A stretch of 64,000 bases of DNA from an uncultured Planctomycetaceae bacterium (GTDB lineage Bacteria; Planctomycetota; Planctomycetia; Isosphaerales; Isosphaeraceae). Location of the stretch: positions 1,184,001-1,248,000 of the forward strand of contig CAWIAD010000001.1 of NCBI GenBank assembly GCA_963833985.1, in the 5' to 3' direction. A model generated the notes under the pieces. It saw only the letters and a list, made by a program, of their open reading frames with translations, ran no database searches and was not told the DNA's origin. This document shows positions 10,436-58,492 of the stretch, one piece after another; positions within the stretch are counted from its first letter, which is position 1, and the number at the start of each line of letters is the position of its first letter. Made by a program: the position numbers and the translations under genes.

Positions 10436-10436
10436 G
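10294..10436 (+). repeat. 143-bp direct repeat, copy 1 (3' end of the AKR gene)
   Basis: Aligns without gaps to 12185-12327 at roughly 90% identity by eye. Confidence 0.9.
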
Positions 10437-10560
10437 GCGGCAATCACTCCCACAGATGAGCGTTCAAGTTTTCAGGCTTGGGCATTCGAGGTGTCGAGCG
10501 AGGGGCCGAGCTCCCCAGACCACCTATGATAGGAGCGTATCTTTGAGAAATCGACGAGTG

Positions 10561-12138: not shown

Positions 12139-12184
12139 CTCGGCGCGTCAGTAGGCCCCCGGTCGGACGGGAGGCCCCCTCGCA

Positions 12185-12327
12185 GATCAAGGAGCACTTT
12201 GAGGTCTCCACCCTTCCCCCAGACGCCATGCGGGAGATTAGCGAAGGGATCAAGTCGCGGATCCGGTTTAATGCTGTTGTAGACACCGGCGTTCCCGGGT
12301 TCATTCCGAGAGGAAAGGGAGGTTGAG
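12185..12327 (+). repeat. 143-bp direct repeat, copy 2 (orphan AKR 3' fragment)
   Basis: Encodes IKEHFEVSTLPPDAMREISEGIKSRIRFNAVVDTGVPGFIPRGKGG*. Confidence 0.9.
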
Positions 12328-12424
12328 ACGGGGTGGCTGTCAGGGAGTTGTCGCGCCTCAAGGATACCCGCATTGAGGGGGCGCGTGGCCTCCAACATGG
12401 ATTCTTTCGGCGGGAGGAGTCACC

Positions 12425-16503: not shown

Positions 16504-16774
16504 CGGCAATCCCACCCGTTCGTCGCACCCGGTGCGCGCCCGGCGCCGCAGAGCGCAAGGCTCGATCGTCTGTCATTCTAAAGGACATTCTCGGCCGGCA
16601 AGTGCCCTTTTCCCGACCCAGTGCTTGCAATCGTGATGAACAGGAGTCACGTTGGACATCGTCTGACCCGCCGCGCTGCTTAGAATGTCCGGCGGGCACT
16701 ACCGGCGTGCTGCACGGGATCGACGATCGAGGAAGCTTCGCCTCGGAAAACCGAGGCCAGACAGCGAGGGTGCC

Positions 16775-17833
16775 ATGCGTGGCGACACGCCGATCGCGCG
16801 TCAGTGGAAGCTGCTCAGGATGCTTGGCTGTCGGCGTCTCGGCTTGACCATACAAGAGATGAGCACAGAAACGGGAGTCGGGATCAAGACCATCCGGCGC
16901 GATCTGGACTTTTTCCGCGGCCTTGGCTTCCCCTTGACGGAGCACGTGTGCGAACGGGGCCTCAAGCGGTGGCGACTGGCGGGTGCGCACGTGGAACCGC
17001 CCCTGGCATTCAGGCTCGACGAGGCGATTGCCCTCTACCTGGGCCGGCACCTCATGGACCCGCTGGCAGGAACGCCTTTGTGGGACGCCGCGCAGAGTTC
17101 CTTCCGCAAGATCAAGGCGACGCTCGGCGAAAAGGCCCTCGAGTACATCGAGTCCTTTCGCGGCTTTTACCACCAGACGTCCGTCGGCACCAGCTCCTAC
17201 GCCGCCAAGGCCGAGGTGATCGACGCGATCATGGTCGCACTGGAGGACCGGAAGGCAGTACACATTGCCTACCAGTCCCTCAGGGCCACGGAGCCGGCGA
17301 CCCGAGACATCTATCCCTATGGTTTCATCTACCACCGCGGTAGCCTCTACCTGGCGGCCTTCGCACCCGAGCACGACCGGGTCAAGACCTACAAGGTCGA
17401 TCGCGTCGAGAGCGTCGAGGTCAGCAACCGGCGCTTCGAGCGACCCGCGGACTTCGACCTCGACCGGTTTCTCTCAGGCTCGTTCGGGGTCTTCGAGGGC
17501 GAGGGCGATCTCCTGACGGTGTGCGTCCGCTTTGCGCCGTGCGTGTCGCGGTACGTCAGGGAAGCGCACTGGCACTCCAGCCAGGAGCTCACCCCTCAAA
17601 CCGATGGCAGCCTGCTCGCCCGGTTCCACCTCAACAGCCTCGAGGAATTCAGGGCCTGGATCCTCGGCTTCGGCTCGAACGCTCTCGTGTTGCAGCCGAC
17701 CTCCCTGCGCACCGAGATAGCGGCGGAGGTCGGGCTCATGCTCCGTATGTACGGGCAGGAAGTTGGTGCTGGAGATGACATGAAAGCGTTCGATGATGGG
17801 AATCAGGTCAGGTCTGTGCCAGCGGACAAATGA
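16775..17833 (+). CDS. HTH-WYL-WCX transcriptional regulator directly upstream of the cas genes
   Basis: N-terminal HTH (KTIRRDL); YPYGFIYHRGSLYL; YKVDRV; WILGFGSNALVLQP. Confidence 0.9.
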   Translation: MRGDTPIARQWKLLRMLGCRRLGLTIQEMSTETGVGIKTIRRDLDFFRGLGFPLTEHVCERGLKRWRLAGAHVEPPLAFRLDEAIALYLGRHLMDPLAGTPLWDAAQSSFRKIKATLGEKALEYIESFRGFYHQTSVGTSSYAAKAEVIDAIMVALEDRKAVHIAYQSLRATEPATRDIYPYGFIYHRGSLYLAAFAPEHDRVKTYKVDRVESVEVSNRRFERPADFDLDRFLSGSFGVFEGEGDLLTVCVRFAPCVSRYVREAHWHSSQELTPQTDGSLLARFHLNSLEEFRAWILGFGSNALVLQPTSLRTEIAAEVGLMLRMYGQEVGAGDDMKAFDDGNQVRSVPADK

Positions 17834-17897: not shown

Positions 17898-18524
17898 ATG
17901 CCAGTCGTTGACCTTGCCTTCGAGCTTGCAGGCAACTCGCTGCCCGTGGACCACGGTTATGAGCTTTTCTCCGCCATTTGCCGCGTCGTCCCGCGTCTGC
18001 ACGGCGACCGGCACATCGGCGTGCATGCCATTCGTGGTCAGGCGGCGAGCGCGGGAACAATCTTGCTCGGAGGCCGCTCGCGCTTGCGGGTGCGCTTGCC
18101 CTCGGAGGAGATCGCGGCTTACCTGGCGCTGGCCGGTTCGGCTCTCGACGTGAACGGCCATCGGCTCCGCGTCGGCATCCCGCACGTCGAGTCACTGATC
18201 CCTACCGCGAACCTGTCCGCACGCATCGTGACCTTCAAGGCCATGGTCGAGCCCGACCCGTTCCTGGCCTGTGTGCGCCGCCATCTGACCGCGCTCGGCG
18301 TTTCCGGCGACCCTCAGCTCGTCCCCTCGACGCGGGAACCCTGGACCGGCCGCCCTTTCCGCCGCGTCCTCCGCGTCAAGGGCCGAGCCATCGTCGGCTA
18401 TGCCCTGCGAGTCCTCGCCTTGACGGCGGAGGAGTCGGTCCTGATCCAGGAGCGCGGTCTCGGGGGGCGAAGGCGATTTGGATGCGGCGTCTTCCTGCCA
18501 TTGAAGGAGGTGAACCCTCGATGA
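17898..18524 (+). CDS. cas6: Cas6 (Cmx6, Myxan type), copy A
   Basis: VDLAF...PVDHGYELFSA; C-terminal glycine loop GLGGRRRFGCGVF. Confidence 0.92.
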   Translation: MPVVDLAFELAGNSLPVDHGYELFSAICRVVPRLHGDRHIGVHAIRGQAASAGTILLGGRSRLRVRLPSEEIAAYLALAGSALDVNGHRLRVGIPHVESLIPTANLSARIVTFKAMVEPDPFLACVRRHLTALGVSGDPQLVPSTREPWTGRPFRRVLRVKGRAIVGYALRVLALTAEESVLIQERGLGGRRRFGCGVFLPLKEVNPR

Positions 18525-20920
18525 ACACAGACATTTTGTGGGCCAAGAGCAAGCAGCACGAGGAGCAATACCACCCGTCCATGTCGCTCTCCGGTCACCT
18601 GTCGGATGTCCTTGAGGCGGCGATCCGGATCATAGACTCCACCGGTGACGAGCAGCTTCGGGCACTTGGTCTGGACCCGGAGCGGTACGGAGATCGACTG
18701 AGGCGATGCGTGCGGTTGGCCGCGGCCCTCCACGATATCGGCAAGGCAAACGACCATTTTCAGGGAATGATTCGCGGCAAGCGCGATGTGCGTCAGAACC
18801 CGCAGGGCGTACGGCACGAATGGGTGTCGGTTCTGATGCTACGGACACTCAGGGACTGGCTTCTACCGGTATTCGATAAGGCCGAATGCGACTTCGACAT
18901 CGTGGAATGGGCCGTATCCGCACACCACCCAGCTCGCGATCACCAAAGCCCTCCCCCCTCGTGTCCGCCAGGGGCGGGTCCGGAGATAACGCTCCTCACA
19001 GGTCATGACGAGATCCAAGGAATTCTCGACTGGGTTCAAGAAACATTCGAGATTGCCGCCCTCCAACCGAAGCACGGCTCCGAGAAGCGACCACTCGTTG
19101 GCCCGGAAAACGCGTTCACGGAGCTTGCGATTTGGGCGAAGTCGGCTCGCCGCACCTGGAATCGAATGCGTGGCGATAAAGAGGCCTCGCGGTTCGTCGC
19201 CGCGGTCAAGGCCTGTCTGATCGCCGCCGACGTGGCGGGCTCGGTGCTGCCGAGGTCCGGGGTGGACGGATCGACGGATTGGAATTGGATTGCAAGGGCC
19301 TTATCGAACCTGCCGAAATCGGGCGACGTCCAGAAGATCGCCGATCATCGCCTGGACGGCAAACCACCCCGCGAATTCCAGCAAGCGGTCGGGGCTTCTC
19401 ACTGGCCGGTCACTTACGTCAAGGCGGGTTGCGGGACCGGCAAGACCGTGGCCGCATACCTCTGGGCCGCTGTCAACCACCCGACACGCCGGCTCTTCTT
19501 CTGCTATCCCACGACGGGCACGGCCACGGAGGGGTTCAAGGATTACCTGTTCGAGCCGGACGGAGAGCTGGGAGATCTCGGCGCCAGGCTGTTCCACAGC
19601 CGGCGGGACGTGGACTTCGACATCATCCTCGGCACGGGTGCAGACTCGCCGCATGCCGAGGCTGACTCGGCCGCGCGGCTGGAAGCGCTGGAAGCCTGGT
19701 CCACACCCATCGTCGCCTGTACGGTCGATACTGTCCTTGGGCTGGTTCAGAATAACAGGCGCGGTCTCTTTGCCTGGCCCGCTCTCGCCCAGTCGGCCTT
19801 CGTCTTCGACGAGATCCACGCCTACGACGACCGGCTCTTCGGAGCACTGCTCCGGTTCCTTCGAGACCTCCACGGGCTCCCTTGCCTGTTAATGACTGCC
19901 AGCTTGCCGAAGCCGCGCGAGGAGGCGCTCTTTCGGACGATCCGGGATGTCCACGACCTGGACCTGCGGCCGATCGAGGGCCCGCGGGAGCTCCAATTAC
20001 TGCCGCGCTACCATAGGCTGAACGCACCCGGCAATGACCCGCTTCCCCTCGTACAGGCCGAGCTCAGGGCCGGCGGCAAGGTGCTCTGGGTCTGCAACAC
20101 GGTGAGCCGTGTGATGGATGCGGCCGACCGCGCCAGCCAGCTCAATCCGCTCATTTACCATAGCCGGTTTCGCTACGTGGATCGTGTTGAGCGGCACAAG
20201 CGAGTTGTCGAGGCCTTCACTCCCGAACACCATGGCCCCGCGCTCGCGATTTGCAGCCAGGTCGCCGAGATGAGCCTGGATCTGAAGGGTTGCACGCTGC
20301 TCGTCACCGACCTGGCGCCGGTTCCGTCCCTGATCCAGCGGTTGGGAAGGCTGAACCGCCAGGCCGCGCCTGGCAACCCGACCAGGCCATTCGTCGTGGT
20401 GGAGCAAGACGAGAGCTCGCGCGACAGGCACCTTCCTTATGCCGCAGGCGACCTGGACGCGGCCCGGACCTGGCTGGAACGTCTGCCGGAATCGGAGATC
20501 AGCCAGCAGCATCTTGCCGATCACTGGGAGCAACTGGCCGAGAAACCGCCAGAACTCGTGCCGAGCGCCTGGCTCGATGGCGGCCCGTCGACAATTGTCA
20601 CGGATCTGCGCGAACCGTCGCAGGGGATCACGGTGATTCTGGATACCGCGGAGTACCCGGATCACCGTGCGCTCCTGCGTTACGATAACCGGATCCGCGA
20701 GTTGCGTCGCAGGGCGCGCGCCGACCAGCGCAGCCTGAGCCGAGAAGAACGGAAGCCACTCCCGGGGGAGCAGGATCGCCTGGCAGCCGTGACGCTGCCA
20801 ATGCCTCCACCTCACGCTCACATCAGGTGGCGCGAGTGGACGCGCTACAAGAGCATACCGGTCGCGCCAGCCGAAGCCATCCACTATGACCTCGAACGAG
20901 GTGCCCGATGGAACGCCTGA
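18521..20920 (+). CDS. cas3: Cas3 HD nuclease-helicase
   Basis: LHDIGKAN; AGCGTGKT; DEIHAYD; MTAS; HSRF; QRLGRLNR; ATGA overlap with cas6. Confidence 0.95.
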   Translation: MNTDILWAKSKQHEEQYHPSMSLSGHLSDVLEAAIRIIDSTGDEQLRALGLDPERYGDRLRRCVRLAAALHDIGKANDHFQGMIRGKRDVRQNPQGVRHEWVSVLMLRTLRDWLLPVFDKAECDFDIVEWAVSAHHPARDHQSPPPSCPPGAGPEITLLTGHDEIQGILDWVQETFEIAALQPKHGSEKRPLVGPENAFTELAIWAKSARRTWNRMRGDKEASRFVAAVKACLIAADVAGSVLPRSGVDGSTDWNWIARALSNLPKSGDVQKIADHRLDGKPPREFQQAVGASHWPVTYVKAGCGTGKTVAAYLWAAVNHPTRRLFFCYPTTGTATEGFKDYLFEPDGELGDLGARLFHSRRDVDFDIILGTGADSPHAEADSAARLEALEAWSTPIVACTVDTVLGLVQNNRRGLFAWPALAQSAFVFDEIHAYDDRLFGALLRFLRDLHGLPCLLMTASLPKPREEALFRTIRDVHDLDLRPIEGPRELQLLPRYHRLNAPGNDPLPLVQAELRAGGKVLWVCNTVSRVMDAADRASQLNPLIYHSRFRYVDRVERHKRVVEAFTPEHHGPALAICSQVAEMSLDLKGCTLLVTDLAPVPSLIQRLGRLNRQAAPGNPTRPFVVVEQDESSRDRHLPYAAGDLDAARTWLERLPESEISQQHLADHWEQLAEKPPELVPSAWLDGGPSTIVTDLREPSQGITVILDTAEYPDHRALLRYDNRIRELRRRARADQRSLSREERKPLPGEQDRLAAVTLPMPPPHAHIRWREWTRYKSIPVAPAEAIHYDLERGARWNA

Positions 20921-21014
20921 CGGCATCAATGAATGGGGACTTACCCCGAGATTCGGTTATTTCGCAAGTACCTCATTGCTCAACGCCTTGCGGCGATCCT
21001 GGTACAGATTGCGG
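20906..21014 (-). CRISPR. Antisense mini-CRISPR: two degenerate repeats and one 34-35 nt spacer; probable crRNA-like regulatory RNA
   Basis: Minus strand reads ...ATCGCCGCAAGGCGTTGAGCAA (18/20 match to the 3' end of the main repeat), spacer TGAGGTACTTGCGAAATAACCGAATCTCGGGGTA, then AGTCCCCATTCATTGATGCCGTCAGGCGTTCCATCG; both hairpins are kept. Confidence 0.82.
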
Positions 21015-21025
21015 TCCTTTCTTAG

Positions 21026-21052
21026 TTGACACCAAGGGGGCTCGAATGTCAA
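21026..21052. promoter_or_regulatory. TTGACA-N15-TGTCAA inverted repeat (two facing consensus -35 hexamers)
   Basis: Seen directly between the mini-CRISPR and its target; no clean -10 at 17 bp on either strand. Confidence 0.55.
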
Positions 21053-21057
21053 TAGTT

Positions 21058-21079
21058 ATGTGAGGAACCTGAGAAATAA
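21058..21079 (+). promoter_or_regulatory. ATG PAM plus 19-nt partial protospacer for the mini-CRISPR spacer (putative Cascade operator)
   Basis: ATG-TGAGGAACCTGAGAAATAA versus spacer TGAGGTACTTGCGAAATAA; runs into the RBS AAGGAG (21078-21083). Confidence 0.78.
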
Positions 21080-21091
21080 GGAGCCACCCCG

Positions 21092-21337
21092 GTGAGAGAC
21101 ATAGACCTCGTTGACGAGATTACCATGTTCCTAAGGTCCACGACAGCCTATCGGATCTGTCGGCCATACGGTGCTGAGCCGCGTGATGCACTTGGCGAAA
21201 TCTACCTCCGCTTGCTCGGCGGCGCCAGTAAGCCGATTCGAAAGCCGACGGCATGGGTGAGGACGAACGCGACTTTTCTTCTCCGGAATTACCTGCGGCG
21301 CGAGAACAGCCGACTCTACCAGCCCTCGGAGATCTAA
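21092..21337 (+). CDS. Sigma-70 region-2-like small protein (81 aa)
   Basis: DALGEIYLRLL...IRKPTAWVRTNATFLLRNYLRRE resembles the ECF region 2 pattern; AAGGAG RBS and GTG start. Confidence 0.6.
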   Translation: MRDIDLVDEITMFLRSTTAYRICRPYGAEPRDALGEIYLRLLGGASKPIRKPTAWVRTNATFLLRNYLRRENSRLYQPSEI

Positions 21338-21338
21338 C

Positions 21339-21617
21339 ATGCCCCTCTTTTCTCTCCAATCGCTTCAATCTCTGGGAACTGACTTTAAGGACGAGGCCAG
21401 GTATGCCCTTGAGTCATTCGAGCTTCGCGATCTTGTGGCTCGGGAGCTCATGCGACTCCCCCAGCGGGAGAGGGAAGCCATAACGGCCCTCGCCGGTCTC
21501 AGCACCGAGTCATGCCGATCTGTTGCTCGAAAACACGGCGTGTCAGCGCAGACGGTTTCCAATTGGGCCAAGGAGGCTCAGCGCAAGTTGCGTCCCAAGC
21601 TGGAGGCTTACGCGTGA
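21339..21617 (+). CDS. Sigma-70 region-4-like HTH protein (92 aa)
   Basis: LMRLPQREREAI...SVARKHGVSAQTVSNWAKEAQRKLR; GGAG 7 nt upstream; stop overlaps the cas6 copy B GTG. Confidence 0.78.
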   Translation: MPLFSLQSLQSLGTDFKDEARYALESFELRDLVARELMRLPQREREAITALAGLSTESCRSVARKHGVSAQTVSNWAKEAQRKLRPKLEAYA

Positions 21618-22219
21618 GGTTCGTACTCGATATTTGTTGGCCGCTCTTACCTCCAGGGCGATTCCCCGTTCACTACCAATATTATCTGCTAGCCAGTCTC
21701 TCGCGAATAGTGCCCGAGATTCACTCCACCCCCACCCTGGGTGTCCATCCGATTCGTGGAATGAAGTCCGCCCTCGGGTTTCTGGAAATCGATCGGCGCA
21801 GTGCGGTAACACTCAGAGCACCTGCCGAGGTTCTTCCGACGCTGGTCCCGTTAGGAGGAAAGAAACTCGACATCGGCGGGTGTCAAGTCCGGCTGGGCGT
21901 TCCACGACTCACCGCCCTGGCGCCCGCAGAGCGCCTTCGAGCCGACCTCGTCACTATCAAAGGATACATGTCGATGCCCGAATTCGAGTCGGGGGTAAGG
22001 AGACAGCTGTCCGCGCTTGGGATGAGCGATGAAGTCCGTGCGGAGGTTGGGCGTCGACGGGTCGTCCAGATACGGGGACAGACCATCGTCGGCTTCGGCC
22101 TTCGCCTCTCCGGTCTCTCCGAGGACGAGTCGGTCCGAGTTCAGCAGTACGGACTCGGGGGACGGCGACACTTCGGCTGCGGCCTATTCCAACCTGACTT
22201 GACGGAGATAACGTCGTGA
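21614..22219 (+). CDS. cas6: Cas6 (Cmx6-like), divergent copy B
   Basis: GVHPIRG; LVTIKG; GLGGRRHFGCGLF; GTGA overlaps at both ends. Confidence 0.88.
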   Translation: MRFVLDICWPLLPPGRFPVHYQYYLLASLSRIVPEIHSTPTLGVHPIRGMKSALGFLEIDRRSAVTLRAPAEVLPTLVPLGGKKLDIGGCQVRLGVPRLTALAPAERLRADLVTIKGYMSMPEFESGVRRQLSALGMSDEVRAEVGRRRVVQIRGQTIVGFGLRLSGLSEDESVRVQQYGLGGRRHFGCGLFQPDLTEITS

Positions 22220-23910
22220 AGGGCGCTGAAAAGAAAACGAGGTTACAAGAGGGTCCAAGCCATTTGACCATGCGCCTCTTCGCCCCGGGTATGTCGGTCC
22301 TGCACCGCGCTGGGCTGGGCGGGCTGGCCTGCACGCTGAATGCGGTGGAAGATCGGCATCGAAGCGGGCTGTTGCGCCCCGAGCGATTGCCCGCGCCGTT
22401 CGAGGGCGACAAGCCCCCCTGGGAGATCGACGAGCAGTCGGTGACGCTCCGGTTCGGCAAGCCCGAGAACGCGGGCGAGTACCTGAGGAAGCTTTTCGAG
22501 TTTGCCTTTCAAATTCGCAAGGACGGCCTGATCAGCCTGCCTGGGCAATTCCAAGGGGAGTTATCGGCAGCCGTGCTCGCCGACTTGCAATTGGGGCTCA
22601 CGCTGACGTTCTTGCAGCACGGCCGGGTTCGGGCTCTTGCGAAGGAGGCCACCGTAGCCAGCTATGATACTGACGGAGATGGTGTTCCCGGAGTCGTGGT
22701 CCAGTACAAGAAGTGCTCGGCGTTCAAGCACCAGAAGGGCTGGGAATCGCTGGTTGGCGGCAGTGGCGCCCTGGTATCCGGTTCCATCGCTGTCGATGGG
22801 CCCATCAGTCCCGGCTCGGTCGTGAGGCACGTGGCATACACCGGCGATACGGGTATCGAGGATCCTCCGGAGCGGATGCTTCCTCTGTACTTCGCGCTCG
22901 TCGGCTGCCTGGCCCTGCCCGTGAACCGTGGCGTCGCGGCGCTCATCGTTCCGGATGTCACGGACCTCTCCGAGTTCGTCCTCGATCGTGCGGCGATGAC
23001 CCCGACAACAGCAACGCAGTGCCAGATCGCCGGTGCCGCCGACGCCGCCTTCAGCGCCCAGGTGCGAATCCGCCGCAATCCAAGGAGATCCGCCGAGGTG
23101 GAGTCGAGGGCTCGCCAGGCGCTGTCTGGGTCCGCAATCCCGGCATGCTACGCCATGACCTTCACGCCGACTCCCTGGGCCAGTCAGCAGAAGTCTCGCG
23201 TGGCGACGATCATCGTTCCTCAGGGAGAGAAGCGAACGCTGGACCTCTACGAGCGAGCCGCCACTCACCTGCCCGCAAGGATTGCGACTCGCACGGTCCG
23301 AGAATCGACCGGGCGTGGCAAGCAGCGCACGGTGACCGAGCGCCAGGAGTCGTTCCGAGCCGATAGCATTGTCCGCCCCCTGGTCGCCGAGAACCTGGCA
23401 TTGGGCCGCCCCTGGTATTCCGGGTTCGTGAAACTACTGACCAAGACAAACCCAGCGACCGGCAACCCTTACCGCAACCAACTTCCCTTCGAGCGCGGAG
23501 GATTGAATGCCATGATTTCAGATCCCCAGATGTGGGACGACCGGGGAGAGGAGCTTATCGTCAAGGCCGTCCACGAGGCCATCCGGCAGACCCTTGGCCG
23601 GATCAAGCAGGAGACCGATGGGCCGGGGAACAAGCCGCCCTCACAGGCGACCAAGAACCGCTGGACGAGGTTCCAGGAGAAACTGCGGCTCTCGCTGGCC
23701 GAATCGAAAACCCCAAACGACGCCCGCCATGCCCTGTGCAATCTGTTCAGCCGGGCTGGCCGCGTGCCCGCTCTGGCCGAGTATTGGCAGCTTGTGCTGC
23801 CCAAGCTCGCCGACCGCCGCTGGCAACTGACGCGCGACCTGGCCTTGCTCGCCCTCGCGAGCTATTCCGGCAGATCCAGCGAAAACGGTGACGAACAACC
23901 TCAACAGTGA
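22216..23910 (+). CDS. cas8: Cas8 large subunit (Cmx8/Cas8a1 Myxan type)
   Basis: MSVLHRAGLGGL; TFLQHG; WASQQKSR; RDLALLALASY; position before cas7 and cas5. Confidence 0.88.
   Translation: MKGAEKKTRLQEGPSHLTMRLFAPGMSVLHRAGLGGLACTLNAVEDRHRSGLLRPERLPAPFEGDKPPWEIDEQSVTLRFGKPENAGEYLRKLFEFAFQIRKDGLISLPGQFQGELSAAVLADLQLGLTLTFLQHGRVRALAKEATVASYDTDGDGVPGVVVQYKKCSAFKHQKGWESLVGGSGALVSGSIAVDGPISPGSVVRHVAYTGDTGIEDPPERMLPLYFALVGCLALPVNRGVAALIVPDVTDLSEFVLDRAAMTPTTATQCQIAGAADAAFSAQVRIRRNPRRSAEVESRARQALSGSAIPACYAMTFTPTPWASQQKSRVATIIVPQGEKRTLDLYERAATHLPARIATRTVRESTGRGKQRTVTERQESFRADSIVRPLVAENLALGRPWYSGFVKLLTKTNPATGNPYRNQLPFERGGLNAMISDPQMWDDRGEELIVKAVHEAIRQTLGRIKQETDGPGNKPPSQATKNRWTRFQEKLRLSLAESKTPNDARHALCNLFSRAGRVPALAEYWQLVLPKLADRRWQLTRDLALLALASYSGRSSENGDEQPQQ
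23512..23910 (+). CDS. cas11: Putative Cas11 small subunit from an internal in-frame start in cas8 (132 aa)
   Basis: GGAGGA at 23497-23502, 9 nt before an in-frame ATG; internal Cas11 translation is known for I-B, I-C and I-D. Confidence 0.65.
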   Translation: MISDPQMWDDRGEELIVKAVHEAIRQTLGRIKQETDGPGNKPPSQATKNRWTRFQEKLRLSLAESKTPNDARHALCNLFSRAGRVPALAEYWQLVLPKLADRRWQLTRDLALLALASYSGRSSENGDEQPQQ

Positions 23911-23931
23911 ACTTCCTGGAGAAAAAAACCC

Positions 23932-24819
23932 ATGAGCCTGCACGTATTCGCGAACTTCGTGACACCCTTTGGCGCGGCGGCCAATAACCGGGCCGAGACC
24001 GAGGGCAACATCACGACCCTTCAAAAGCTCGTCTGGATGGGGGAGACACACACCACCGTGAGCGCCGAGGCCATCCGCTTTGCTCTTCGAAGGCGACTCG
24101 CTTCCCTTGATGAGCGGGGTTCGAACCGCAAGTGGGACGAGGACGAGAGGAACAACACCTGGCAGGACTGGACATTCAAGGGATGGACCTCGAAGGGCGG
24201 CGAGACATTCATCGACGACGACCTGCTCGGCTTCATGACCGCCGAGGCCGCGAAGGAAGAAGGCGAGTCGGGCACCGCCAACGTCCGCCGGGCGGTGCTG
24301 GAGGTGACGCGGGCCGTATCGCTCACCCCGTGGTCGGGTGACGTCACGTTCAATGCAGCATCGCCGGGCGCCACACCCTCGGCACAGAAGAAAGGGAGCA
24401 ACCCGGTGCCATACGGCACCGAGGTCCACGCGACTCGCTACCAGTACGGCATCGCGCTGACGCCCGAGCGGCTTCGCGACAGCTCCCGGGCGGCGAAGGC
24501 CATCGAGGCGCTCTGCAATCTCGGCACGGTCGCCGGTAATCACGGCCGTTTTCTTTTCGACTTCTCACCCGACGCCGTCGTCTTCCGCATCACCCAGGAT
24601 CCCGCGCCACGCCTGCTGTACTGCTTCGAGACAGCGGATGACGGCAAGAGCATCATCGCCCCGCGCCTGGAGGCCCGCGTCAGCGCTGGCGACATCGACA
24701 GCAGCGAGCTGATCATCGCGGGGGTCAAGGTCCAGGGTGTCGATACGGAAAAGGGCGTGAAGGCCGCCTGCGCCCAGGCCGTCACCAGGATCAACGAGTC
24801 CTTGAAGGCCAAGAGGTAA
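23932..24819 (+). CDS. cas7: Cas7 (DevR/Cst2 type)
   Basis: AANNRAETEGNITTLQKL; VSAEAIRFALR; FIDDDLLGFM; EVHATRYQY. Confidence 0.93.
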   Translation: MSLHVFANFVTPFGAAANNRAETEGNITTLQKLVWMGETHTTVSAEAIRFALRRRLASLDERGSNRKWDEDERNNTWQDWTFKGWTSKGGETFIDDDLLGFMTAEAAKEEGESGTANVRRAVLEVTRAVSLTPWSGDVTFNAASPGATPSAQKKGSNPVPYGTEVHATRYQYGIALTPERLRDSSRAAKAIEALCNLGTVAGNHGRFLFDFSPDAVVFRITQDPAPRLLYCFETADDGKSIIAPRLEARVSAGDIDSSELIIAGVKVQGVDTEKGVKAACAQAVTRINESLKAKR

Positions 24820-24822
24820 TCC

Positions 24823-25458
24823 ATGCTCGGCTTGTACGTTACCGTTCCGATCGCCTGCTTCCGGAAAGGTCTGGCGCGGGAGTATCTCGAGACCGAGCCC
24901 CTGCCACCGCCCGCGACGTGCTACGGCTTCCTGCTCTCGTTGGTCGGTGAAACCGATCGGCGGCGGCACATCGGTGCTCGCGTTTGCCCCGCCCTGCTCA
25001 ACAAGCCGGAGATGAGCGTCGTCATCAGGACCGTCTGGCGCGTCAAGAAGACGCCCCTGGGCTCGTCGGGAAATACCCGGCCTGACTATCAGCAACTTCT
25101 CTCGCCGATCCGTCTGCTCATCTGGCTCGACTCCTCCGAGGAAAAGGGCGAGCAGCCAGGGCTGGAAGACCGCGTATCCGTCGCGCTTGACGAGCCTGGC
25201 CGCATTTCCCGGTTCGGCGGCCTCTCCCTCGGCGAGAGCACGCACCTGGTTGATGAGGTTCGGCGCCCACGCGCCGGCGACGACGAAGACGTTCCAGCGC
25301 GGGCGTATCTCCTGGCCGAACGGGGACGCCTGTCGCTGCCGGTCTGGGTTGACCATGTCGGATCGGCCGGCACCCGCTTCGCGGTCGGGGAGCTTGTCGA
25401 TCAGCACGGAATGAAGCCGCCGGATCGAATCCGGATGCCCATCATTACTCCAACATAG
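24823..25458 (+). CDS. cas5: Cas5 (DevS/Cmx5 type)
   Basis: VPIACFRKGLAREYLETEPLPPPATCYGFLLSLVGE; GGLSLGESTHLVDE. Confidence 0.93.
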   Translation: MLGLYVTVPIACFRKGLAREYLETEPLPPPATCYGFLLSLVGETDRRRHIGARVCPALLNKPEMSVVIRTVWRVKKTPLGSSGNTRPDYQQLLSPIRLLIWLDSSEEKGEQPGLEDRVSVALDEPGRISRFGGLSLGESTHLVDEVRRPRAGDDEDVPARAYLLAERGRLSLPVWVDHVGSAGTRFAVGELVDQHGMKPPDRIRMPIITPT

Positions 25459-25491: not shown

Positions 25492-27150
25492 ATGCCAGAA
25501 CAACCGCTCGACGGTCGCGCTACCCGTCTGCGCGTGATGTCCCTGCACGCCCTGGCCTACTGCCAGCGTCTTTTCTACCTGGAGGAGGTCGAGGAGATTC
25601 GCGTCGCCGACGAGCGCGTCTTCGCCGGTCGCGAGCTGCATGCGTCGCTCGAGGCCGGTGAGGACGGGGAGCGAACGCAACTTGAACTCGAAGACCGCGA
25701 CCTGGGACTGGTGGGCAAGGTCGACGCCCTCCGGAAACGGGATGGATCGCTGGTGCCTTATGAGCACAAGCGAGGGAAGTCGTGCAAGCTTGACGGGCAG
25801 GCCCATGCCTGGCCGTCCGACCGGCTCCAGGTCATCGCCTATGCCGTGCTCATCGAGTCCGCCTTCGGTCAGACCATTCCCGAGGGCCGGGTTCGCTACC
25901 ACGCCGACCACGCCACGGTGCGCATTCCCATCGACGCGCAGGCCCGCCAGGACCTGGACGATGCCATCGCGACGGCACGCCGGCTGAGCGAGTCGACCGA
26001 GCGACCCCCTGTCACCGACAACGAGCGGCTCTGTGCGAAGTGCTCGCTGGCGCCGGTGTGCCTGCCCGAGGAGAGCCGGCTCGTCGAGGACAACGGACGT
26101 CAGCCGGTCCGGCTCTTCCCGCCAGATCGCGATGGGACGACGCTTCATGTCGTGACGCCGGGCGCCCGCGTCGGCCGCAGCGCGGAGACACTCACGATCA
26201 CCTTGCCCGACGTCACCCCTCCCTCGCGCCACCCGATCCGCGGCATCGACTCCGTGCTCCTCCATGGTCATGTCCAGGCGACGACCCAGGCACTGAGCCT
26301 CTGTGTCGATCACGACATTCCCGTTCACTGGTTGACGACAACCGGCCGCCATGTCGCGAGCCTGACCGCCTCGGCCGGCCAGGTCCAGCGCCGGGTGCGG
26401 CAGTATCGCGCCCTTGCGGATGAGGCGGCCTGCCTGCGGCTCGCCCGCGCCCTGGTGCGTGCCAAGATCGAGGGCCAGCACCGCTACCTCCTCCGCGCCT
26501 CGCGTGGCGACGACTCCCAGCGCGACGCCATGGAGGCCGATCTCGTCCTGCTTCGCTCGGCCCTCTTGAGCCTGGACCAGGCAGCGGATCGCGACTCTCT
26601 TCGAGGTCACGAGGGCTCCGCCGCCGTGGGATACTTCGGCGGGCTCGGCCGGCTTCTGGTCGCCTCGGTACCCGACTCGCTGCGGTATTCCACCCGCAGC
26701 CGGCGGCCTCCCCTGGACCGCTTCAATGCCCTGCTCAGCTTCGGCTACGGCCTGCTGCACACGGCCGTCATGCGGGCCATCCTGGCAAGCGGCCTGGAGC
26801 CCTCGCTGGGCTTTTTCCACACCCCGCGCAGCGCCGCGTATCCGCTGGTGCTCGACCTCATGGAACTGTTCCGGGTCATCCTCTGGGACATGGTGGTCAT
26901 CGGCTCCCTGAACCGCGGCCAGTGGGATCCGGACGCCGACTTCCTCGTCACCAAGGCGAAGGTCTGGCTTTCCGAGGACGGCCGCAAGAAGGCGATCAAC
27001 CTGTTCGAGTCGCGCCTTGACGAGACCTGGAAGCACCCGGTCCTCGGTTACTCGCTCTCCTACGCACGGACCCTGGAACTGGAGGCCCGGCTCCTGGAGA
27101 AGGAGTGGAGCGGCGAGTCCGGACTCTTCGCACGCCTGCGGATTCGCTGA
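25492..27150 (+). CDS. cas1: Cas4-Cas1 fusion
   Basis: YCQRLFY, GKVD, EHKRG and CAKCSLAPVC (Cas4 Fe-S/RecB); LRGHEG, NALLSFGY, GFFH and DLMELFR (Cas1). Confidence 0.95.
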   Translation: MPEQPLDGRATRLRVMSLHALAYCQRLFYLEEVEEIRVADERVFAGRELHASLEAGEDGERTQLELEDRDLGLVGKVDALRKRDGSLVPYEHKRGKSCKLDGQAHAWPSDRLQVIAYAVLIESAFGQTIPEGRVRYHADHATVRIPIDAQARQDLDDAIATARRLSESTERPPVTDNERLCAKCSLAPVCLPEESRLVEDNGRQPVRLFPPDRDGTTLHVVTPGARVGRSAETLTITLPDVTPPSRHPIRGIDSVLLHGHVQATTQALSLCVDHDIPVHWLTTTGRHVASLTASAGQVQRRVRQYRALADEAACLRLARALVRAKIEGQHRYLLRASRGDDSQRDAMEADLVLLRSALLSLDQAADRDSLRGHEGSAAVGYFGGLGRLLVASVPDSLRYSTRSRRPPLDRFNALLSFGYGLLHTAVMRAILASGLEPSLGFFHTPRSAAYPLVLDLMELFRVILWDMVVIGSLNRGQWDPDADFLVTKAKVWLSEDGRKKAINLFESRLDETWKHPVLGYSLSYARTLELEARLLEKEWSGESGLFARLRIR

Positions 27151-27184
27151 CGAGAATGACCGCCAGATCAGCAAGGAACGACCC

Positions 27185-27484
27185 TTGAACGACGCACGGT
27201 GGTGGCTGGTTTGCTATGATGTTCGCGACCCGGTTCGATTACGCCGCACCGCCCGGATTTTGGAGGGCGCGGGGGAGCGGATTCAGTACTCCGTCTTCCG
27301 CTGCTGGCTGAGCCCCACCCAGATGAACGAGCTGCGCTGGAACCTGACCGAGGTCCTGGAGCCCGAGGACGATGTATTGCTGATACCGCTCTGCCCGCGC
27401 TGTGTCCGGGGCATGGCCACGACCCACACCGCGACCAAGGTTCCGGACTGGCCCGCGGGTCCGGAATCCCACTCGATCGTCTAA
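27185..27484 (+). CDS. cas2: Cas2
   Basis: LVCYDVRD; IQYSVFRC; LCPRC; TTG start inferred. Confidence 0.92.
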   Translation: MNDARWWLVCYDVRDPVRLRRTARILEGAGERIQYSVFRCWLSPTQMNELRWNLTEVLEPEDDVLLIPLCPRCVRGMATTHTATKVPDWPAGPESHSIV

Positions 27485-27749: not shown

Positions 27750-30700
27750 CCGCCCTCGACCATGACGCCGAAAGGCGTTGAGCACTCATGGCCTCATCGG
27801 CGTCGATCTCCGAAAAGCCCCGCCCTCGACCATGACGCCGAAAGGCGTTGAGCACAAGGCCGGCGGCTGGGACCACAGCCGAAATCACCCCCGCCCTCGA
27901 CCATGACGCCGAAAGGCGTTGAGCACGAATACCCGACGAGATCATCGTGCTGGTGCCCTATCCGCCCTCGACCATGACGCCGAACGGCGTTGAGCACATG
28001 GCAATAGCTTCTGGTCGCGCCAGGTCGAGATGCCGCCCTCGACCATGACGCCGAAAGGCGTTGAGCACCCCTTTTTCTCGCCGTGCTGAATCGCCGTGGC
28101 GATCCGCCCTCGACCATGACGCCGAAAGGCGTTGAGCACAGAACGGGATGCACCCATAGTCGTGCGGCTCCTGGCCGCCCTCGACCATGACGCCGAAAGG
28201 CGTTGAGCACACCCGGCCGCGGCTGCGGTGCGGTCGAACCCGGATTGACCGCCCTCGACCATGACGCCGAAAGGCGTTGAGCACGAAACCGCCCCTGGGC
28301 CCTTACCACCAAGTAACGCCCGCCCTCGACCATGACGCCGAAAGGCGTTGAGCACATCGAACAGACCGCCGATCACGCCAAGCCGGCCGACCGAGCCCGC
28401 CCTCGACCATGACGCCGAAAGGCGTTGAGCACATCCTAACGACCCGAGCACATATAACACCGCGGACATCCGCCCTCGACCATGACGCCGAAAGGCGTTG
28501 AGCACACCGGCCGGCGGCGATCCGGTCGCGGACGCACGGTGACCGCCCTCGACCATGACGCCGAAAGGCGTTGAGCACGTTGAGGAACATCACCCCGTCG
28601 TCCCGCAGCACTCGCCCGCCCTCGACCATGACGCCGAAAGGCGTTGAGCACACGGCACGCCGAACAACGCCAACCCCATCAATGTGCCCGCCCTCGACCA
28701 TGACGCCGAAAGGCGTTGAGCACCGGCCTCGCCCTGGCGGACGTGGAGATCAGCGCAGCCCGCCCTCGACCATGACGCCGAAAGGCGTTGAGCACAACGT
28801 GAACGTCCCGGTGGTCAACACCGGCGACGCCCCGCCCTCGACCATGACGCCGAAAGGCGTTGAGCACGTGCTATTATTGAGTCAGTGGAGATGAGTCCTG
28901 AACCGCCCTCGACCATGACGCCGAAAGGCGTTGAGCACGAGCTGCGTGCGGATGCGCGTGTGGCGGAGCTGCCGTTCCGCCCTCGACCATGACGCCGAAA
29001 GGCGTTGAGCACGCTACCGCACCCACATTGTGCCGCTGGCCCACGAGGCCGCCCTCGACCATGACGCCGAAAGGCGTTGAGCACTCTACCGTTCGATGAT
29101 TCCCGGCGGCGCGTTCCTGCCCGCCCTCGACCATGACGCCGAAAGGCGTTGAGCACGGTGATCGGCGACGAGATCATCCCCGGCTCGAAGCTCCGCCCTC
29201 GACCATGACGCCGAAAGGCGTTGAGCACGTCTCCTTCGCCACGAAGCGGGGGACAGTGATGCTCCGCCCTCGACCATGACGCCGAAAGGCGTTGAGCACG
29301 TCAACCAGCGCGCGCTTCATACTCTGGAACAGCGACCGCCCTCGACCATGACGCCGAAAGGCGTTGAGCACCAATTGCTGCCCGCCGCCGATCAGAGGCC
29401 GGTCCTCCGCCCTCGACCATGACGCCGAAAGGCGTTGAGCACCGGCCTCGATGGTCGGATGAGTCCCCAGGCTCGCCCGCCCTCGACCATGACGCCGAAA
29501 GGCGTTGAGCACGCCCCGTCCGGCCTGCACTGGGGTGCAAGCCAGCATCGCCCGCCCTCGACCATGACGCCGAAAGGCGTTGAGCACGCTCGCCGTTGCG
29601 CGGGCGATGGCAATCACAGGCGCCGCCCTCGACCATGACGCCGAAAGGCGTTGAGCACACGCTGGCCCGTCTTGGCCTCGGCCTGGTCGAGATCCCGCCC
29701 TCGACCATGACGCCGAAAGGCGTTGAGCACCCGAGATCGCCGGCATTGAGGTAGACGCCCGCAACCGCCCTCGACCATGACGCCGAAAGGCGTTGAGCAC
29801 CACCTACCTCACTTTCTCGTCAATCTGATAGGGTCCGCCCTCGACCATGACGCCGAAAGGCGTTGAGCACAGATCGAATCCAAGAGAGTCTCCTGGCTCT
29901 GGCAACCGCCCTCGACCATGACGCCGAAAGGCGTTGAGCACTACGGCAGTTCGTCCCATGTTCCCACTAATACATCCGCCCTCGACCATGACGCCGAAAG
30001 GCGTTGAGCACCACCCGATGTCCTCAAGGTCACTCGAACCCTGGTTCCGCCCTCGACCATGACGCCGAAAGGCGTTGAGCACTCCCCGAGATGCTCGTGA
30101 GCTTCGGCAATGAGATCCGCCCTCGACCATGACGCCGAAAGGCGTTGAGCACCCAGTGATTTTGATGGCGTGCGGCATCAGGTGAACAGCCCGCCCTCGA
30201 CCATGACGCCGAAAGGCGTTGAGCACCCCCCAGGCCGTGCAAGCTCCCGGGGACGTGGGCGCCGCCCTCGACCATGACGCCGAAAGGCGTTGAGCACTAC
30301 CTACACGCGGGGCGGCACCGGGATCACCTTGACCGCCCTCGACCATGACGCCGAAAGGCGTTGAGCACGGGTTGGTGGCGGTGACCGAGAGCGTGGTCGA
30401 GGTCCGCCCTCGACCATGACGCCGAAAGGCGTTGAGCACACCCGCAAGGGCCGGAACGTCGCGGCCTACCCGCCCGCCCTCGACCATGACGCCGAAAGGC
30501 GTTGAGCACTCGCCGGCAGTGTGCTGGATCCGCTGGATGCCGTTCCCGCCCTCGACCATGACGCCGAAAGGCGTTGAGCACAACTGCGGATCTTCATGCC
30601 CCGCGTGAGCCCGAAAGCCGCCCTCGACCATGACGCCGAAAGGCGTTGAGCACCAGAACCCCGACGCGCGGGTTGATGGCGAGCTGGGGCCGCCCTCGAC

Positions 30701-33700
30701 CATGACGCCGAAAGGCGTTGAGCACTATCGGCGGCCAAGGGCCAGGGCGGCAACGCCCGTCCGCCCTCGACCATGACGCCGAAAGGCGTTGAGCACAGCC
30801 GCCGGCGGACGGACCGCCGCAGAACGGCAAGCCGCCCTCGACCATGACGCCGAAAGGCGTTGAGCACACGATCCTCGGGCACTCGCCCGACATCGCGGAC
30901 CCGCCCTCGACCATGACGCCGAAAGGCGTTGAGCACATCCGCGTCGGCGACACGATCATCGCCGTGACGGTCCGCCCTCGACCATGACGCCGAAAGGCGT
31001 TGAGCACCTGGGCAGGCTGCCTCTTCGTCCCGTACTCCGGACCGCCCTCGACCATGACGCCGAAAGGCGTTGAGCACCCGAGACGATGGTCCAGGAGTTG
31101 CCAGTCCTTCAGCCGCCCTCGACCATGACGCCGAAAGGCGTTGAGCACCAGGAGCTGTCTCGTCCGACTCCCTCACCCAGATCGCCGCCCTCGACCATGA
31201 CGCCGAAAGGCGTTGAGCACGCGCTGGGCGTGGCGAGGCTCTTGAACGACCCCGGCCGCCCTCGACCATGACGCCGAAAGGCGTTGAGCACAGTTCACCC
31301 CGAGCCCAGACGACCTTGCTGACTACCCCGCCCTCGACCATGACGCCGAAAGGCGTTGAGCACATCGGTAAGGACTTCTGGATCGGCCGGCTGATCTGGT
31401 CCGCCCTCGACCATGACGCCGAAAGGCGTTGAGCACACCGTGCCGCCGCCCGGCCAGGCCGTCGGAGCGCCATCCCGCCCTCGACCATGACGCCGAAAGG
31501 CGTTGAGCACACCAGTTCGTGCAGCTCCCAACGGCCGTCAACCAGGCCGCCCTCGACCATGACGCCGAAAGGCGTTGAGCACACGGTAATAGCTTCTGGT
31601 CGCGCCAGGTCGAAATGTCCGCCCTCGACCATGACGCCGAAAGGCCTTGAGCACACATATTCGGCGCAGCGTGCCAGCGCAGCTTGCGCCCGCCCTCGAC
31701 CATGACGCCGAAAGGCGTTGAGCACCACTTCGACACCAGGCGGGATGCGCTCGCGGATCGCCCGCCCTCGACCATGACGCCGAAAGGCGTTGAGCACAAG
31801 GAGCTGGAGGAGAACCCGCCGGCCCGGCTGCCCCGCCCTCGACCATGACGCCGAAAGGCGTTGAGCACGGCGCTGGACGCCGCGGCGGTCGCCGTCGTCC
31901 TTCTGGCCCGCCCTCGACCATGACGCCGAAAGGCGTTGAGCACCGGTTTATCCGGCTGAAGAAGGCCGGGACAATCGGCCGCCCTCGACCATGACGCCGA
32001 AAGGCGTTGAGCACTCGTCCACGACCTTGCGGCCGTAGAGGACGGGAATCCGCCCTCGACCATGACGCCGAAAGGCGTTGAGCACACCACGCACCAGCAT
32101 GAAGCCAAGAGCCGATCGGAGCCACCCCGCCCTCGACCATGACGCCGAAAGGCGTTGAGCACTCCAGATCGGCATCCTTGTCATCGACCGAAACTGTCCG
32201 CCCTCGACCATGACGCCGAAAGGCGTTGAGCACATCCGCAGCATCCCCGGCGCGTGCCGTCTGGCGGGCCGCCCTCGACCATGACGCCGAAAGGCGTTGA
32301 GCACCCGAGCCCCAGAAAGGCGCATGGCGCCAACGGGTCCCGCCCTCGACCATGACGCCGAAAGGCGTTGAGCACAGCACTGAGCCGAAACACAGGAGAC
32401 GAGACGATGCCGCCCTCGACCATGACGCCGAAAGGCGTTGAGCACTTTCCCGGAGTGCTCTGGCTATTTACGCCCCGTCCGTCCGCCCTCGACCATGACG
32501 CCGAAAGGCGTTGAGCACCGGCCCACTCCGAGCGCCCGCCGCCAGTCGGTCACGAGCCCGCCCTCGACCATGACGCCGAAAGGCGTTGAGCACCCAAGCG
32601 AAAAACGCAGAATCTCCCTGACCGTGAACGACCGCCCTCGACCATGACGCCGAAAGGCGTTGAGCACCAGCCCATTCCAGATCGCCTACTCCGTGACCAG
32701 CGACCGCCCTCGACCATGACGCCGAAAGGCGTTGAGCACCTCGTCATCGCGGCCTGCGCCGCACCGATCATCGCGCCGCCCTCGACCATGACGCCGGAAG
32801 GCGTTGAGCACTCCCAGGCCGTGAACGACATTAGCAGCTCTGCGTTCCGCCCTCGACCATGACGCCGAAAGGCGTTGAGCACATCCGGGTACGAGCGTAC
32901 TCTGGCTCAGTCCGGCTGCCGCCCTCGACCATGACGCCGAAAGGCGTTGAGCACGGGTAACGCCTCCGGCTTGCGGACGGGCGACGGTTCCGCCCTCGAC
33001 CATGACGCCGAAAGGCGTTGAGCACTCACTCTGAATAGCGGCACCGGTGGCGCCACCCTGCCGCCCTCGACCATGACGCCGAAAGGCGTTGAGCACTCTG
33101 GCGATCGTCGCCTGGACATCAGCCAGTTGCGCCCGCCCTCGACCATGACGCCGAAAGGCGTTGAGCACTCGTTGCCGTTGAGCAGCGTGTCAATCCCCTG
33201 GTCCAGGCCGCCCTCGACCATGACGCCGAAAGGCGTTGAGCACCTCGATGCGCGCGACGAGTCCAACGCGGGGGCGACCGCCCTCGACCATGACGCCGAA
33301 AGGCGTTGAGCACTCTATGTTTCGACGGGCAAGCCCGTCCCGGGCGACTTCCGCCCTCGACCATGACGCCGAAAGGCGTTGAGCACTCCATGAGCCGCAG
33401 CTTGCCGCGCTCCAGAGCCATGGCCGCCCTCGACCATGACGCCGAAAGGCGTTGAGCACAGCAGCAACAAGCCGCGTCAGATCCCCACCGTGTCCGCCCT
33501 CGACCATGACGCCGAAAGGCGTTGAGCACCGGCCTGGTCAAGGGTGACGGTGAACGCCGAGCTGGCCGCCCTCGACCATGACGCCGAAAGGCGTTGAGCA
33601 CCGCGTGTCGGACTGGACCACGCCCGGGCCGTAGGCCGCCGCCCTCGACCATGACGCCGAAAGGCGTTGAGCACGGGTTCTACGTGTTGCGCCACGACGG

Positions 33701-34182
33701 CAATTTCGGCACCGCCCTCGACCATGACGCCGAAAGGCGTTGAGCACCTGACTGAGGCTGCTGACGTGGCGTGGCCACAGGAAGGCCGCCCTCGACCATG
33801 ACGCCGAAAGGCGTTGAGCACTCAGGCTCGGCTTGCGTCCCTCGGGGAACCGATCGCCGCCCTCGACCATGACGCCGAAAGGCGTTGAGCACAAGCTCTC
33901 GATCCTCGTCCCTGTCCGCGAACGCACGCCGCCCTCGACCATGACGCCGAAAGGCGTTGAGCACCGGGTCTCCTCGCTGATCCACGAGCGGTCGTTCAAG
34001 AGCCGCCCTCGACCATGACGCCGAAAGGCGTTGAGCACGAGCACCTGCCGGCGACCGGTCTGCCGGCGCTCCTGCCGCCCTCGACCATGACGCCGAAAGG
34101 CGTTGAGCACACCAAGAGGCCGCACCATTCGGGCTCCCTCGGACGACCGCCCTCGACCATGACGCCGAAAGGCGTTGAGCAC
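27750..34182 (+). CRISPR. CRISPR array with about 90 repeats and 89 spacers (33-41 nt); repeat CCGCCCTCGACCATGACGCCGAAAGGCGTTGAGCAC
   Basis: 36-nt repeat counted by hand; ACGCC-GAAA-GGCGT hairpin and TTGAGCAC handle; orientation from leader position and repeat family. Confidence 0.99.
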
Positions 34183-58395: not shown

Positions 58396-58486
58396 GCCCG
58401 GCCGCGGCTCCGCTCCAGCCCTTGCCGCGGCTCCGTTCCAGCCCTTGCCGCGGCTCGGTTCCGGCCCTTGCCGCGGCTCCGTTCCA
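58396..58486. repeat. Four tandem copies of a 23-bp unit (GCCCTTGCCGCGGCTCCGTTCCA)
   Basis: Units at 58396 (22 bp, degenerate), 58418, 58441 and 58464. Confidence 0.85.
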
Positions 58487-58492
58487 TCCCGG

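Follow-up and report, generated by a model that had tools for sequence, protein, structure and literature searches.

Autorepression by mini-arrays is known from the CreR and CreA guides, the anatomy of which (10.1101/2023.03.03.530964; 10.1101/2023.03.10.532045) matches an element of the window, i.e., the 64,000-nt stretch of DNA that was analyzed. Common to both are a pair of degenerate repeats, a spacer of partial complementarity and a target beside a PAM, located upstream of cas6 in a type I-B system; in the present case, however, a sigma-like gene or gene pair is located between target and cas6. Related arrangements are the CrePA/CreTA and CRISIS modules described for type I-F, haloarchaeal type I-B and type I-C systems (10.1101/2024.01.05.574328; 10.1101/2024.12.27.630466), in which the space between cas3 and the Cascade genes is likewise occupied by non-cas cargo, the promoter of which is targeted by a crlRNA mismatching at positions 6 and 12. 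Their cargo includes a KilAC protein, RNA toxins, Sir2, nucleases, TIR and membrane proteins (10.1101/2024.01.05.574328; 10.1101/2024.12.27.630466). The locus presented here differs in its subtype (I-MYXAN), its sigma cargo, a mini-array placed upstream and in antisense orientation, and an extra cas6; toxicity of its cargo is predicted by analogy.

Sigma regions 2 and 4 on separate small proteins are known from SigO-RsoA (YvrI-YvrHa), Tn916 Sig7-8 and T4 gp55-gp33 (summarised in 10.64898/2026.10.01.756105), to which the pair in the window is likened on the basis of architecture. In contrast to these systems, fused orthologues exist here and control by Cascade is predicted. Furthermore, sigma or sigma-like factors are tied to CRISPR loci in the cases of CASP-sigma (type III-E), CalpS, DdvS-DdvA (M. 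xanthus type III-B), MtvS1/2 (Francisella) and dCas12f with sigma-E. Some of these are freed from an anti-sigma through proteolysis or signalling, and others act upstream of cas expression or are brought in by the effector. For the factor in the window, by contrast, no anti-sigma is encoded, and it is the effector that appears to silence it, at its promoter. CRISPR-linked sigma factors are the subject of PMC10028731, PMC6061681, PMC11506125, 10.1101/2024.05.08.593097, 10.1101/2025.06.10.658865 and PMC13627669. Self-repression of the CreR/CreA/CRISIS type is a known mechanism that is predicted to operate here, and the sigma cargo seems to be new. No report of a crlRNA-repressed sigma was found in the literature searched, the word 'sigma' has 0 occurrences in the main texts of 10.1101/2023.03.10.532045 and 10.1101/2023.03.03.530964, the available part of 10.1101/2024.10.29.618823 does not mention it, and the covered part of the supplementary text of PMC10120712 gave 0 matches; locus tables of PMC10120712 and the bioRxiv supplements may list such loci.

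The window derives from a genome (G000) that is 96% complete and consists of two contigs. Its CRISPR-Cas locus was assigned to type I-MYXAN, a variant of I-B, based on Cas8a1/Cmx1, DevR, DevS, both Cmx6 copies and Cas3, all exceeding curated profile cut-offs, together with Cas4-Cas1, Cas2 and an array (Table 1). The genes follow the order WYL, cas6a, cas3, ORF1, ORF2, cas6b, cas8a1, cas7, cas5, cas4-cas1, cas2 and array, with 171 nt between cas3 and ORF1. Spacers of the array are 33–41 nt long, and a search of their own genome returned no convincing target. A first-pass annotation of this DNA had proposed a sigma-70-like module, apparently split into ORFs of 81 and 92 aa that are 1 nt apart, inside a type I cas operon. 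The curated Cas profiles confirmed this location, and the spacing of the ORFs, the GTGA overlap of ORF2 with cas6b, the SD-like sequence preceding each ORF (AAGGAG at 21078-21083 for ORF1, GGAG 8 nt 5' of the ORF2 ATG) and the frame of ORF2 being open from 21261 (118 codons) were all found as described. The mini-CRISPR and its target at 20905-21079, associated with the gap after cas3, had been absent from that annotation.

Table 1. Features of the type I-MYXAN locus, given as positions in the window.
Feature	Position	Strand	Remarks
WYL-domain regulator	16685..17833	+	start uncertain; Pfam WYL 4e-17, WCX 2e-17
cas6a (Cmx6), resident copy	17898..18524	+	TIGR02807 224 bits; clade distinct from cas6b
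cas3	18521..20920	+	last codons overlap psiR2
psiR2, downstream degenerate repeat	20905..20940	-	6-bp hairpin kept, 3' handle lost; core near-identical in G144
Spacer of predicted crlRNA, 35 nt	20941..20975	-	between psiR1 and psiR2
psiR1, upstream degenerate repeat	20976..21014	-	4-bp hairpin; 8-nt handle, last base unlike array handle
Inverted repeat T(T/A/G)GACA-N15-(T/C)GTC(A/T)A	21026..21052	.	candidate divergent promoter or operator
ATG PAM (21058-21060) and crlRNA target (21061-21079)	21058..21079	+	mismatches at 6, 9, 12 of 19
ORF1, sigma region-2-like	21092..21337	+	81 aa, GTG start
ORF2, sigma region-4-like HTH protein	21339..21617	+	92 aa, ATG start
cas6b, second Cmx6	21614..22219	+	cassette member; TIGR02807 172 bits
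cas8a1	22216..23910	+	TIGR03485/03486 above cut-off; cas8a1-cas7-cas5 block 22216..25458
cas7/DevR	23932..24819	+	TIGR02585 above cut-off
cas5/DevS	24823..25458	+	TIGR02586 above cut-off
cas4-cas1 fusion, then cas2	25492..27484	+	
CRISPR array	27750..34182	+	89 repeats of 36 nt

In Pfam, Sigma70_r2 was the sole match of ORF1 (E=2e-4) and Sigma70_r4 was found among 15 HTH-type matches of ORF2 (E=3e-4), both below the curated cut-offs. Reading through ORF1 and ORF2, with X at the junction, resulted in a match to TIGR02937 covering model positions 18-164 of 165 (E=1.5e-9; 37.7 bits, cut-off 42.9), and the fused relative P0012 passes this cut-off with 45.9 bits. Regions 2 and 4 are present without regions 1 and 3, corresponding to the domain composition of group-4 (ECF-like) sigma factors. 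The AF2 model of ORF1 (pLDDT 92) represents a four-helix bundle, and structure comparison ranked mostly sigma-2 domains highest, with a modest Z of ~6; values of ~6-7, as obtained for the models of ORF1 and of the cargo protein from locus L075, fall into the range that the tool deems common for helical proteins. Foldseek returned nothing at E<=0.001 for the ORF1 model. Taken alone, the structural match of ORF1 is suggestive of a sigma factor, not conclusive. Moreover, clusters of 87-94 aa similar to ORF1 were detected in the ESM Atlas, one set of them featuring Sigma70_r2 on 20% of its members. The first-pass annotation had named the lack of any sigma-fold hit as an outcome that would speak against its reading; with the matches in Pfam, TIGR02937 and structure comparison, this outcome did not occur.

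Within the ORF1 family, residues of the last helix are conserved (W55 in 33/35, N66 in 30/35 and R69 in 25/35 sequences). A classical ECF anti-sigma neighbour was not observed, the next gene being cas6 in 12 of the 13 genomes carrying the module; locus L114 is without cas6 within the contig examined. ORF1 and ORF2 probably constitute a working two-subunit group-4 sigma factor acting on core RNA polymerase. It is improbable, by comparison, that they represent a polymerase poison and not a true sigma factor; as a poison, the halves would occupy the beta' clamp and the beta flap, thereby preventing holoenzyme formation without initiating transcription, and ORF1 alone may suffice. Strong divergence from ECF models, frequent splitting, with 37 of 45 representatives lacking region 4 (see below), and the absence of a visible regulon are compatible with such a poison, but region 4 is kept beside region 2 in every locus read at the DNA level and its recognition helix in ORF2 is conserved across the window's clade, both of which point to a sigma factor.

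Separate genes encode regions 2 and 4 in four genomes analyzed at the DNA level, and their junctions comprise a 1-nt gap (window), a 17-nt gap containing GGAGG (G144), a 2-nt gap and an ATGA overlap (L114). G144, which belongs to another genus of the same family, features the order cas3-r2-r4-cas6-cas8 and 46-48% identity to the window; its ORF1 ends 17 nt before the following ATG, and the frame offset differs from that of the window. In L114, the two parts measure 87 and 84 aa, and in L079 a 108-aa protein is followed by a region-4 part in frame with Cas6. A programmed frameshift at the junction was rejected because the junction frames differ between genomes. A profile search among 1.84 billion representatives yielded 51 matches, of which 45 were kept after removal of six long multi-stretch matches (P0044, P0045, P0050, P0051, P0054, P0055). 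Eight of these contain fused regions 2 and 4 and 37 are without region 4, whereby 35 of the latter measure 74-102 aa once mis-called leaders are trimmed; the short representatives come without genomic context and some may be truncated calls. The proteins P0005 (77 aa) and P0004 (95 aa) were each recorded on a contig of 8829 nt, which is probably one and the same.

Based on its recurrence with different junctions in three other genomes, the split suspected previously is very probably real. It could otherwise be explained by pseudogenisation or an assembly indel in a passenger or decaying sigma gene within an ordinary CreR autoregulation circuit. The incompleteness of G000 and its two contigs would leave room for this explanation, similar assemblies contain frameshifts in cas genes (L144, L074), and P0018 looks like a frameshifted copy of the fused sequence in L099. 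An artefact or passenger is nevertheless quite improbable, since the four split junctions all differ, P0004 and P0005 appear to lie on one contig, the lengths of the 35 short representatives cluster, and a sigma-like gene occupies the slot in 13 genomes. The split is a variable trait of the family and does not define the system because close relatives occupying the identical cas3-[ ]-cas6b position encode a fused protein, as exemplified by the 167-aa gene in L099, and eight of the 45 representatives are fused as well. Sigma-like identity, cas linkage and split of the first-pass reading were supported. A region-2 tree calculated without P0018 and P0030 requires seven changes between split and fused states; its resolution is weak, it performs no better than shuffles, and it is compatible with a single origin.

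Alignment of the gap with the corresponding region of G144 uncovered two conserved blocks resembling the array repeat on the minus strand. An alignment score of 49 was obtained for psiR1 against the array repeat, the best of 542 control windows reaching 39; a tile covering only part of the psiR1 region scored 37. The spacer lies between degenerate repeats that both keep a hairpin, the handle being kept in psiR1, as expected for a crlRNA. Its first 19 nt match the site directly following the ATG, 31 nt before ORF1, save at the three positions given in Table 1. This target ends at the SD and lies 5 nt past the conserved palindrome. Spacer and target agree at 14 of 15 scored positions, a value reached by 0 of 100,000 shuffled spacers. 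Ignoring positions 6 and 12, only two non-self sites with at most one mismatch exist in the genome, the window site being the sole one with an ATG PAM; sites within two mismatches number 26, and among the 25 listed the window site alone features an ATG PAM. In both the window and G144, the terminal part of psiR2 (20905-20920) doubles as the last cas3 codons, tying the cassette to the 3' end of cas3.

In G144, spacer and target both differ from those of the window, yet they pair over 14 nt except at positions 6 and 12. Likewise, in the class-level genome sample introduced below, the best or tied-best non-self seed match was an ATG-flanked site located between the mini-array and the start of the sigma gene in 6/6 loci, the spacers of which are all different, so that a partial seed match beside the subtype's PAM co-varies across loci. 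The related Syn I-B Cascade prefers an AYG PAM and flips every sixth base (PMC11096372). Among the profile matches, the over-long N-termini of four proteins include translated traces of the mini-array element, which agree with both repeat motifs in P0009 and P0034 (control 0/1500) and with one in P0008 and P0014. By its anatomy, the antisense mini-array is capable of giving rise to a crRNA-like guide directed against the PAM-flanked site just before ORF1. What defines the system, as read from the DNA, is that a CRISPR-like RNA targets the promoter region in front of the sigma gene or genes.

Following the CreR/CreA precedent, guide-loaded Cascade very likely binds before ORF1 and, the match between guide and target being too short to trigger Cas3, represses the ORF1-ORF2-cas6b-cas8-cas7-cas5 transcript. 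RNA-guided activation, in which target-bound Cascade would recruit the sigma factor and polymerase in the manner of dCas12f with sigma-E, was considered as well. The Cas12f precedent and co-translation of the sigma genes with cas6, in L079 even with region 4 in frame with Cas6, fit this explanation, but the location of the target, its end at the SD and its occurrence on either strand, depending on the locus, fit occlusion and not activation from a fixed distance. The same geometry is moreover found in loci without sigma, and activation is regarded as very improbable.

The palindrome between mini-array and target is a candidate promoter. Its 15-nt spacing is fixed in six clade members, among them G144 and L099, its second base is variable, and mis-translated leaders of P0008, P0009 and P0014 fit a motif composed of palindrome and PAM (control 0/1000). 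It contains the sigma-70 -35 hexamer, occurs once per locus and is confined to the window's clade, other sub-clades being without it. A canonical sigma-70 promoter or -10 box was not found upstream of ORF1. Due to its symmetry, the palindrome could drive both the operon and the guide. Alternatively, it could be an operator; a function as WYL operator is less likely because G144 keeps the palindrome and no WYL match was obtained on the G144 contig. Genome-wide, the motif occurs at five sites in G000 versus ~3 expected by chance (hand estimate), so that no sigma regulon is visible via the palindrome, and neither cas6a nor cas1 nor the leader was found to be preceded by it.

The proposed model assumes a mobile cassette composed of mini-CRISPR, promoter, sigma and cas6b, which would have been inserted between cas3 and cas8. 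Once an anti-CRISPR or the loss of a subunit disables Cascade, sigma would accumulate, this being the least certain step. The released sigma probably fires its own palindromic promoter, establishing positive feedback that would also yield more guide and Cascade, so that the loop can shut again. If repression is not restored, sigma may out-compete the housekeeping sigma for RNA polymerase and the cell would arrest. The outcome would be a CRISPR-supervised abortive-infection and addiction module with a sigma factor as effector, which may raise an alarm upon inactivation of CRISPR by a virus. A precedent is Tn916 Sig7-8, a split sigma factor that activates itself and is lethal when expressed alone; SigN likewise kills when expressed alone (10.64898/2026.10.01.756105). 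The role thereby assigned to the sigma factor is the one played by CreP and the CRISIS cargo (10.1101/2024.01.05.574328; 10.1101/2024.12.27.630466). As a whole, the model of a Cascade-silenced, auto-activating sigma alarm ending in growth arrest is put forward tentatively, its probability being placed somewhat below one half.

An amplifier that does not kill would be based on the same repression circuit, the sigma factor merely boosting cas genes or crlRNA from its own promoter or a host regulon in a switch-like anti-anti-CRISPR response. Translational coupling of the sigma genes to cas6b at the head of the Cascade operon, the fixed spacing of the palindrome in place of a canonical sigma-70 promoter, and the known sigma control of cas loci by DdvS and CASP-sigma are in line with amplification. 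On the other hand, a burst is already obtained from a CreR promoter without cargo (10.1101/2023.03.10.532045), the palindrome was not found at the other positions of the locus named above, and the same slot in other phyla holds small Zn-ribbon-like or membrane proteins, looking more like exchangeable effectors. Overall, a pure amplifier is considered rather unlikely.

If the alarm model is true, a global transcription factor joins the cargo supervised by CRISPR effectors, linking anti-CRISPR sensing to RNA polymerase, and a sigma factor would be governed by a guide RNA in place of an anti-sigma protein. The family includes natural split and fused versions of one sigma, providing a way to ask what the two-subunit form gains. 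The circuit is also compact and could be reconstructed in Escherichia coli to serve as a reporter or to screen for type I-B anti-CRISPRs.

In order to describe the coupling of mini-array and sigma, a class sample of 401 genomes was screened, 28 of which encode Cas8a1 (type I-MYXAN loci). An antisense repeat precedes a cas6 in six of these 28 loci, and a sigma-like gene or pair is located in between in 6/6; of the 17 remaining loci in which 800 nt or more precede cas6, none showed a sigma profile match at this position. Five loci were not assessable (two truncated, three without a cas6 match), and an extra one-mismatch repeat match inside WYL in L062 was disregarded. When 185,579 species genomes were scanned for the pattern, 64 loci resulted, in which the best local spacer match was ATG-flanked for 25/42 solitary repeats versus 0/22 array-embedded repeats. 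Of 14 planctomycete solitary mini-arrays beside cas genes, ten are accompanied by sigma-like cargo; four are without (L095, L102, L112, L121), and the circuit would therefore work without sigma. In the six loci inspected from other phyla, no sigma was found; instead, the slot holds a small protein rich in Cys in three of them and a small, membrane-like one in two, and it is empty in the sixth.

In total, the module, i.e., a mini-array and non-cas cargo behind a targeted promoter as in supervised-cargo systems, was recorded with split or fused sigma sequences, often barely alignable, in 13 genomes, whereby the loci are related and the counts are not independent. The concern raised in the first-pass annotation that homologues might never occur near cas genes was dispelled by these loci, and its question of whether homologues are also split and cas-linked can be answered in the affirmative for G144, L114 and L079. 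A word-index search with the read-through protein found no homologue. Protein-pattern scans gave no locus in viral_contigs and two in metagenome_contigs, both false positives on inspection, and mini-array DNA patterns had 0 matches in viral_contigs. The ORF1 profile matched in 2/121 genomes of the family; in 401 genomes of the phylum, it gave six weak non-self matches (E ~1e-5 to 1e-6) in frames of 181-540 codons, which were taken for ordinary sigma factors.

The cargo is diverse. Sub-cut-off matches to TIGR02937 (E=3e-10 to 3e-5) were obtained for L139, L135, L136, L064, L099 and the region-4 part of L079, and L058, L074, L075 and L106 gave no NCBIfam match. HHalign against the fused family returned merely 3-7% for L058, L074 and L075. 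Against a profile of the other cargos, values of 2.5e-5 (L058) and 9e-10 (L074) were reached, the latter helped by the relative L136 in the profile. For the L075 model, the top seven structural matches are sigma-containing chains covering both halves, at Z 7.0-7.4, within the range noted above as common for helical proteins. The nearest Atlas clusters of L058 mostly comprise phage proteins, some with Sigma70_r2. The nearest identity is 54%, which together with the scatter of the sequences could reflect decay instead of selection.

Phylogenetically, cas6b clades with the cas6 genes behind the sigma gene in G144 and L099 (SH-aLRT 98), apart from cas6a. Its GC3 of 0.64 resembles that of ORF1/ORF2 (0.68/0.63), other cas genes showing 0.76-0.84. 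Furthermore, L056 represents an empty site, its cas6 being nearly identical to those of L058 and L106 with the cassette absent. Together with the diverse cargo, the common cas6b clade, the low GC3 shared with ORF1/ORF2 and this empty site indicate that the unit moves as a cassette with exchange of its cargo. More speculatively, and with a probability of perhaps one in three, planctomycete type I-MYXAN systems may have repeatedly captured unrelated, partly phage-like sigmas into one crlRNA-guarded slot, where Cascade would replace the anti-sigma by keeping an auto-activating sigma off through RNA-guided repression. An anti-CRISPR attack would then flip a bistable switch, with the consequence that host transcription is reprogrammed or shut down and Cascade is armed anew. 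In this reading, the window's lineage would possess a CRISPR-gated alternative sigma factor with two subunits.

Several further observations were made at individual loci. In the window itself, two copies of a 160-nt direct repeat (10281-10440 and 12172-12331, 88% identical) border an ORF resembling molybdopterin oxidoreductases, and a tandem repeat with a period of 23 nt is present at 58401-58490. In L079 (1570-2544, minus strand), the sigma region-4 part shares one open frame with Cas6, a possible sigma4-Cas6 fusion that could also be an assembly error, and a truncated cas6 (residues 1-87) precedes the cassette. The ATG of the sigma-like gene in L139 (before 2805, minus strand) is followed by an in-frame stop two codons on. 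In KSB1/Acidobacteriota, a 50-75 aa protein with two CxxC motifs occupies the crlRNA-targeted slot (L078:692-916, minus strand; L123 ~3190-3383, plus strand; L131:3172-3324, plus strand); it is a candidate new supervised effector, and the proteins of L078 and L131 had no NCBIfam match. Small hydrophobic ORFs, likewise without NCBIfam match, separate the mini-array from cas6 in Polyangium and in one bin of proteobacterial origin (L113:3292-3660, plus strand; L100:2565-2798, minus strand). Cargo-free mini-arrays in L112, L121 and L092, the ATG PAM of which overlaps the end of a sigma-70-like -10 box, correspond to plain CreR. Moreover, a second geometry, with the mini-array on the same strand as cas6-cas3 and an ATG-flanked target upstream, was observed in L080, L088, L097, L104, L105, L119, L122 and L125, the hosts of this arrangement being Pyrinomonadaceae, gammaproteobacteria and others.
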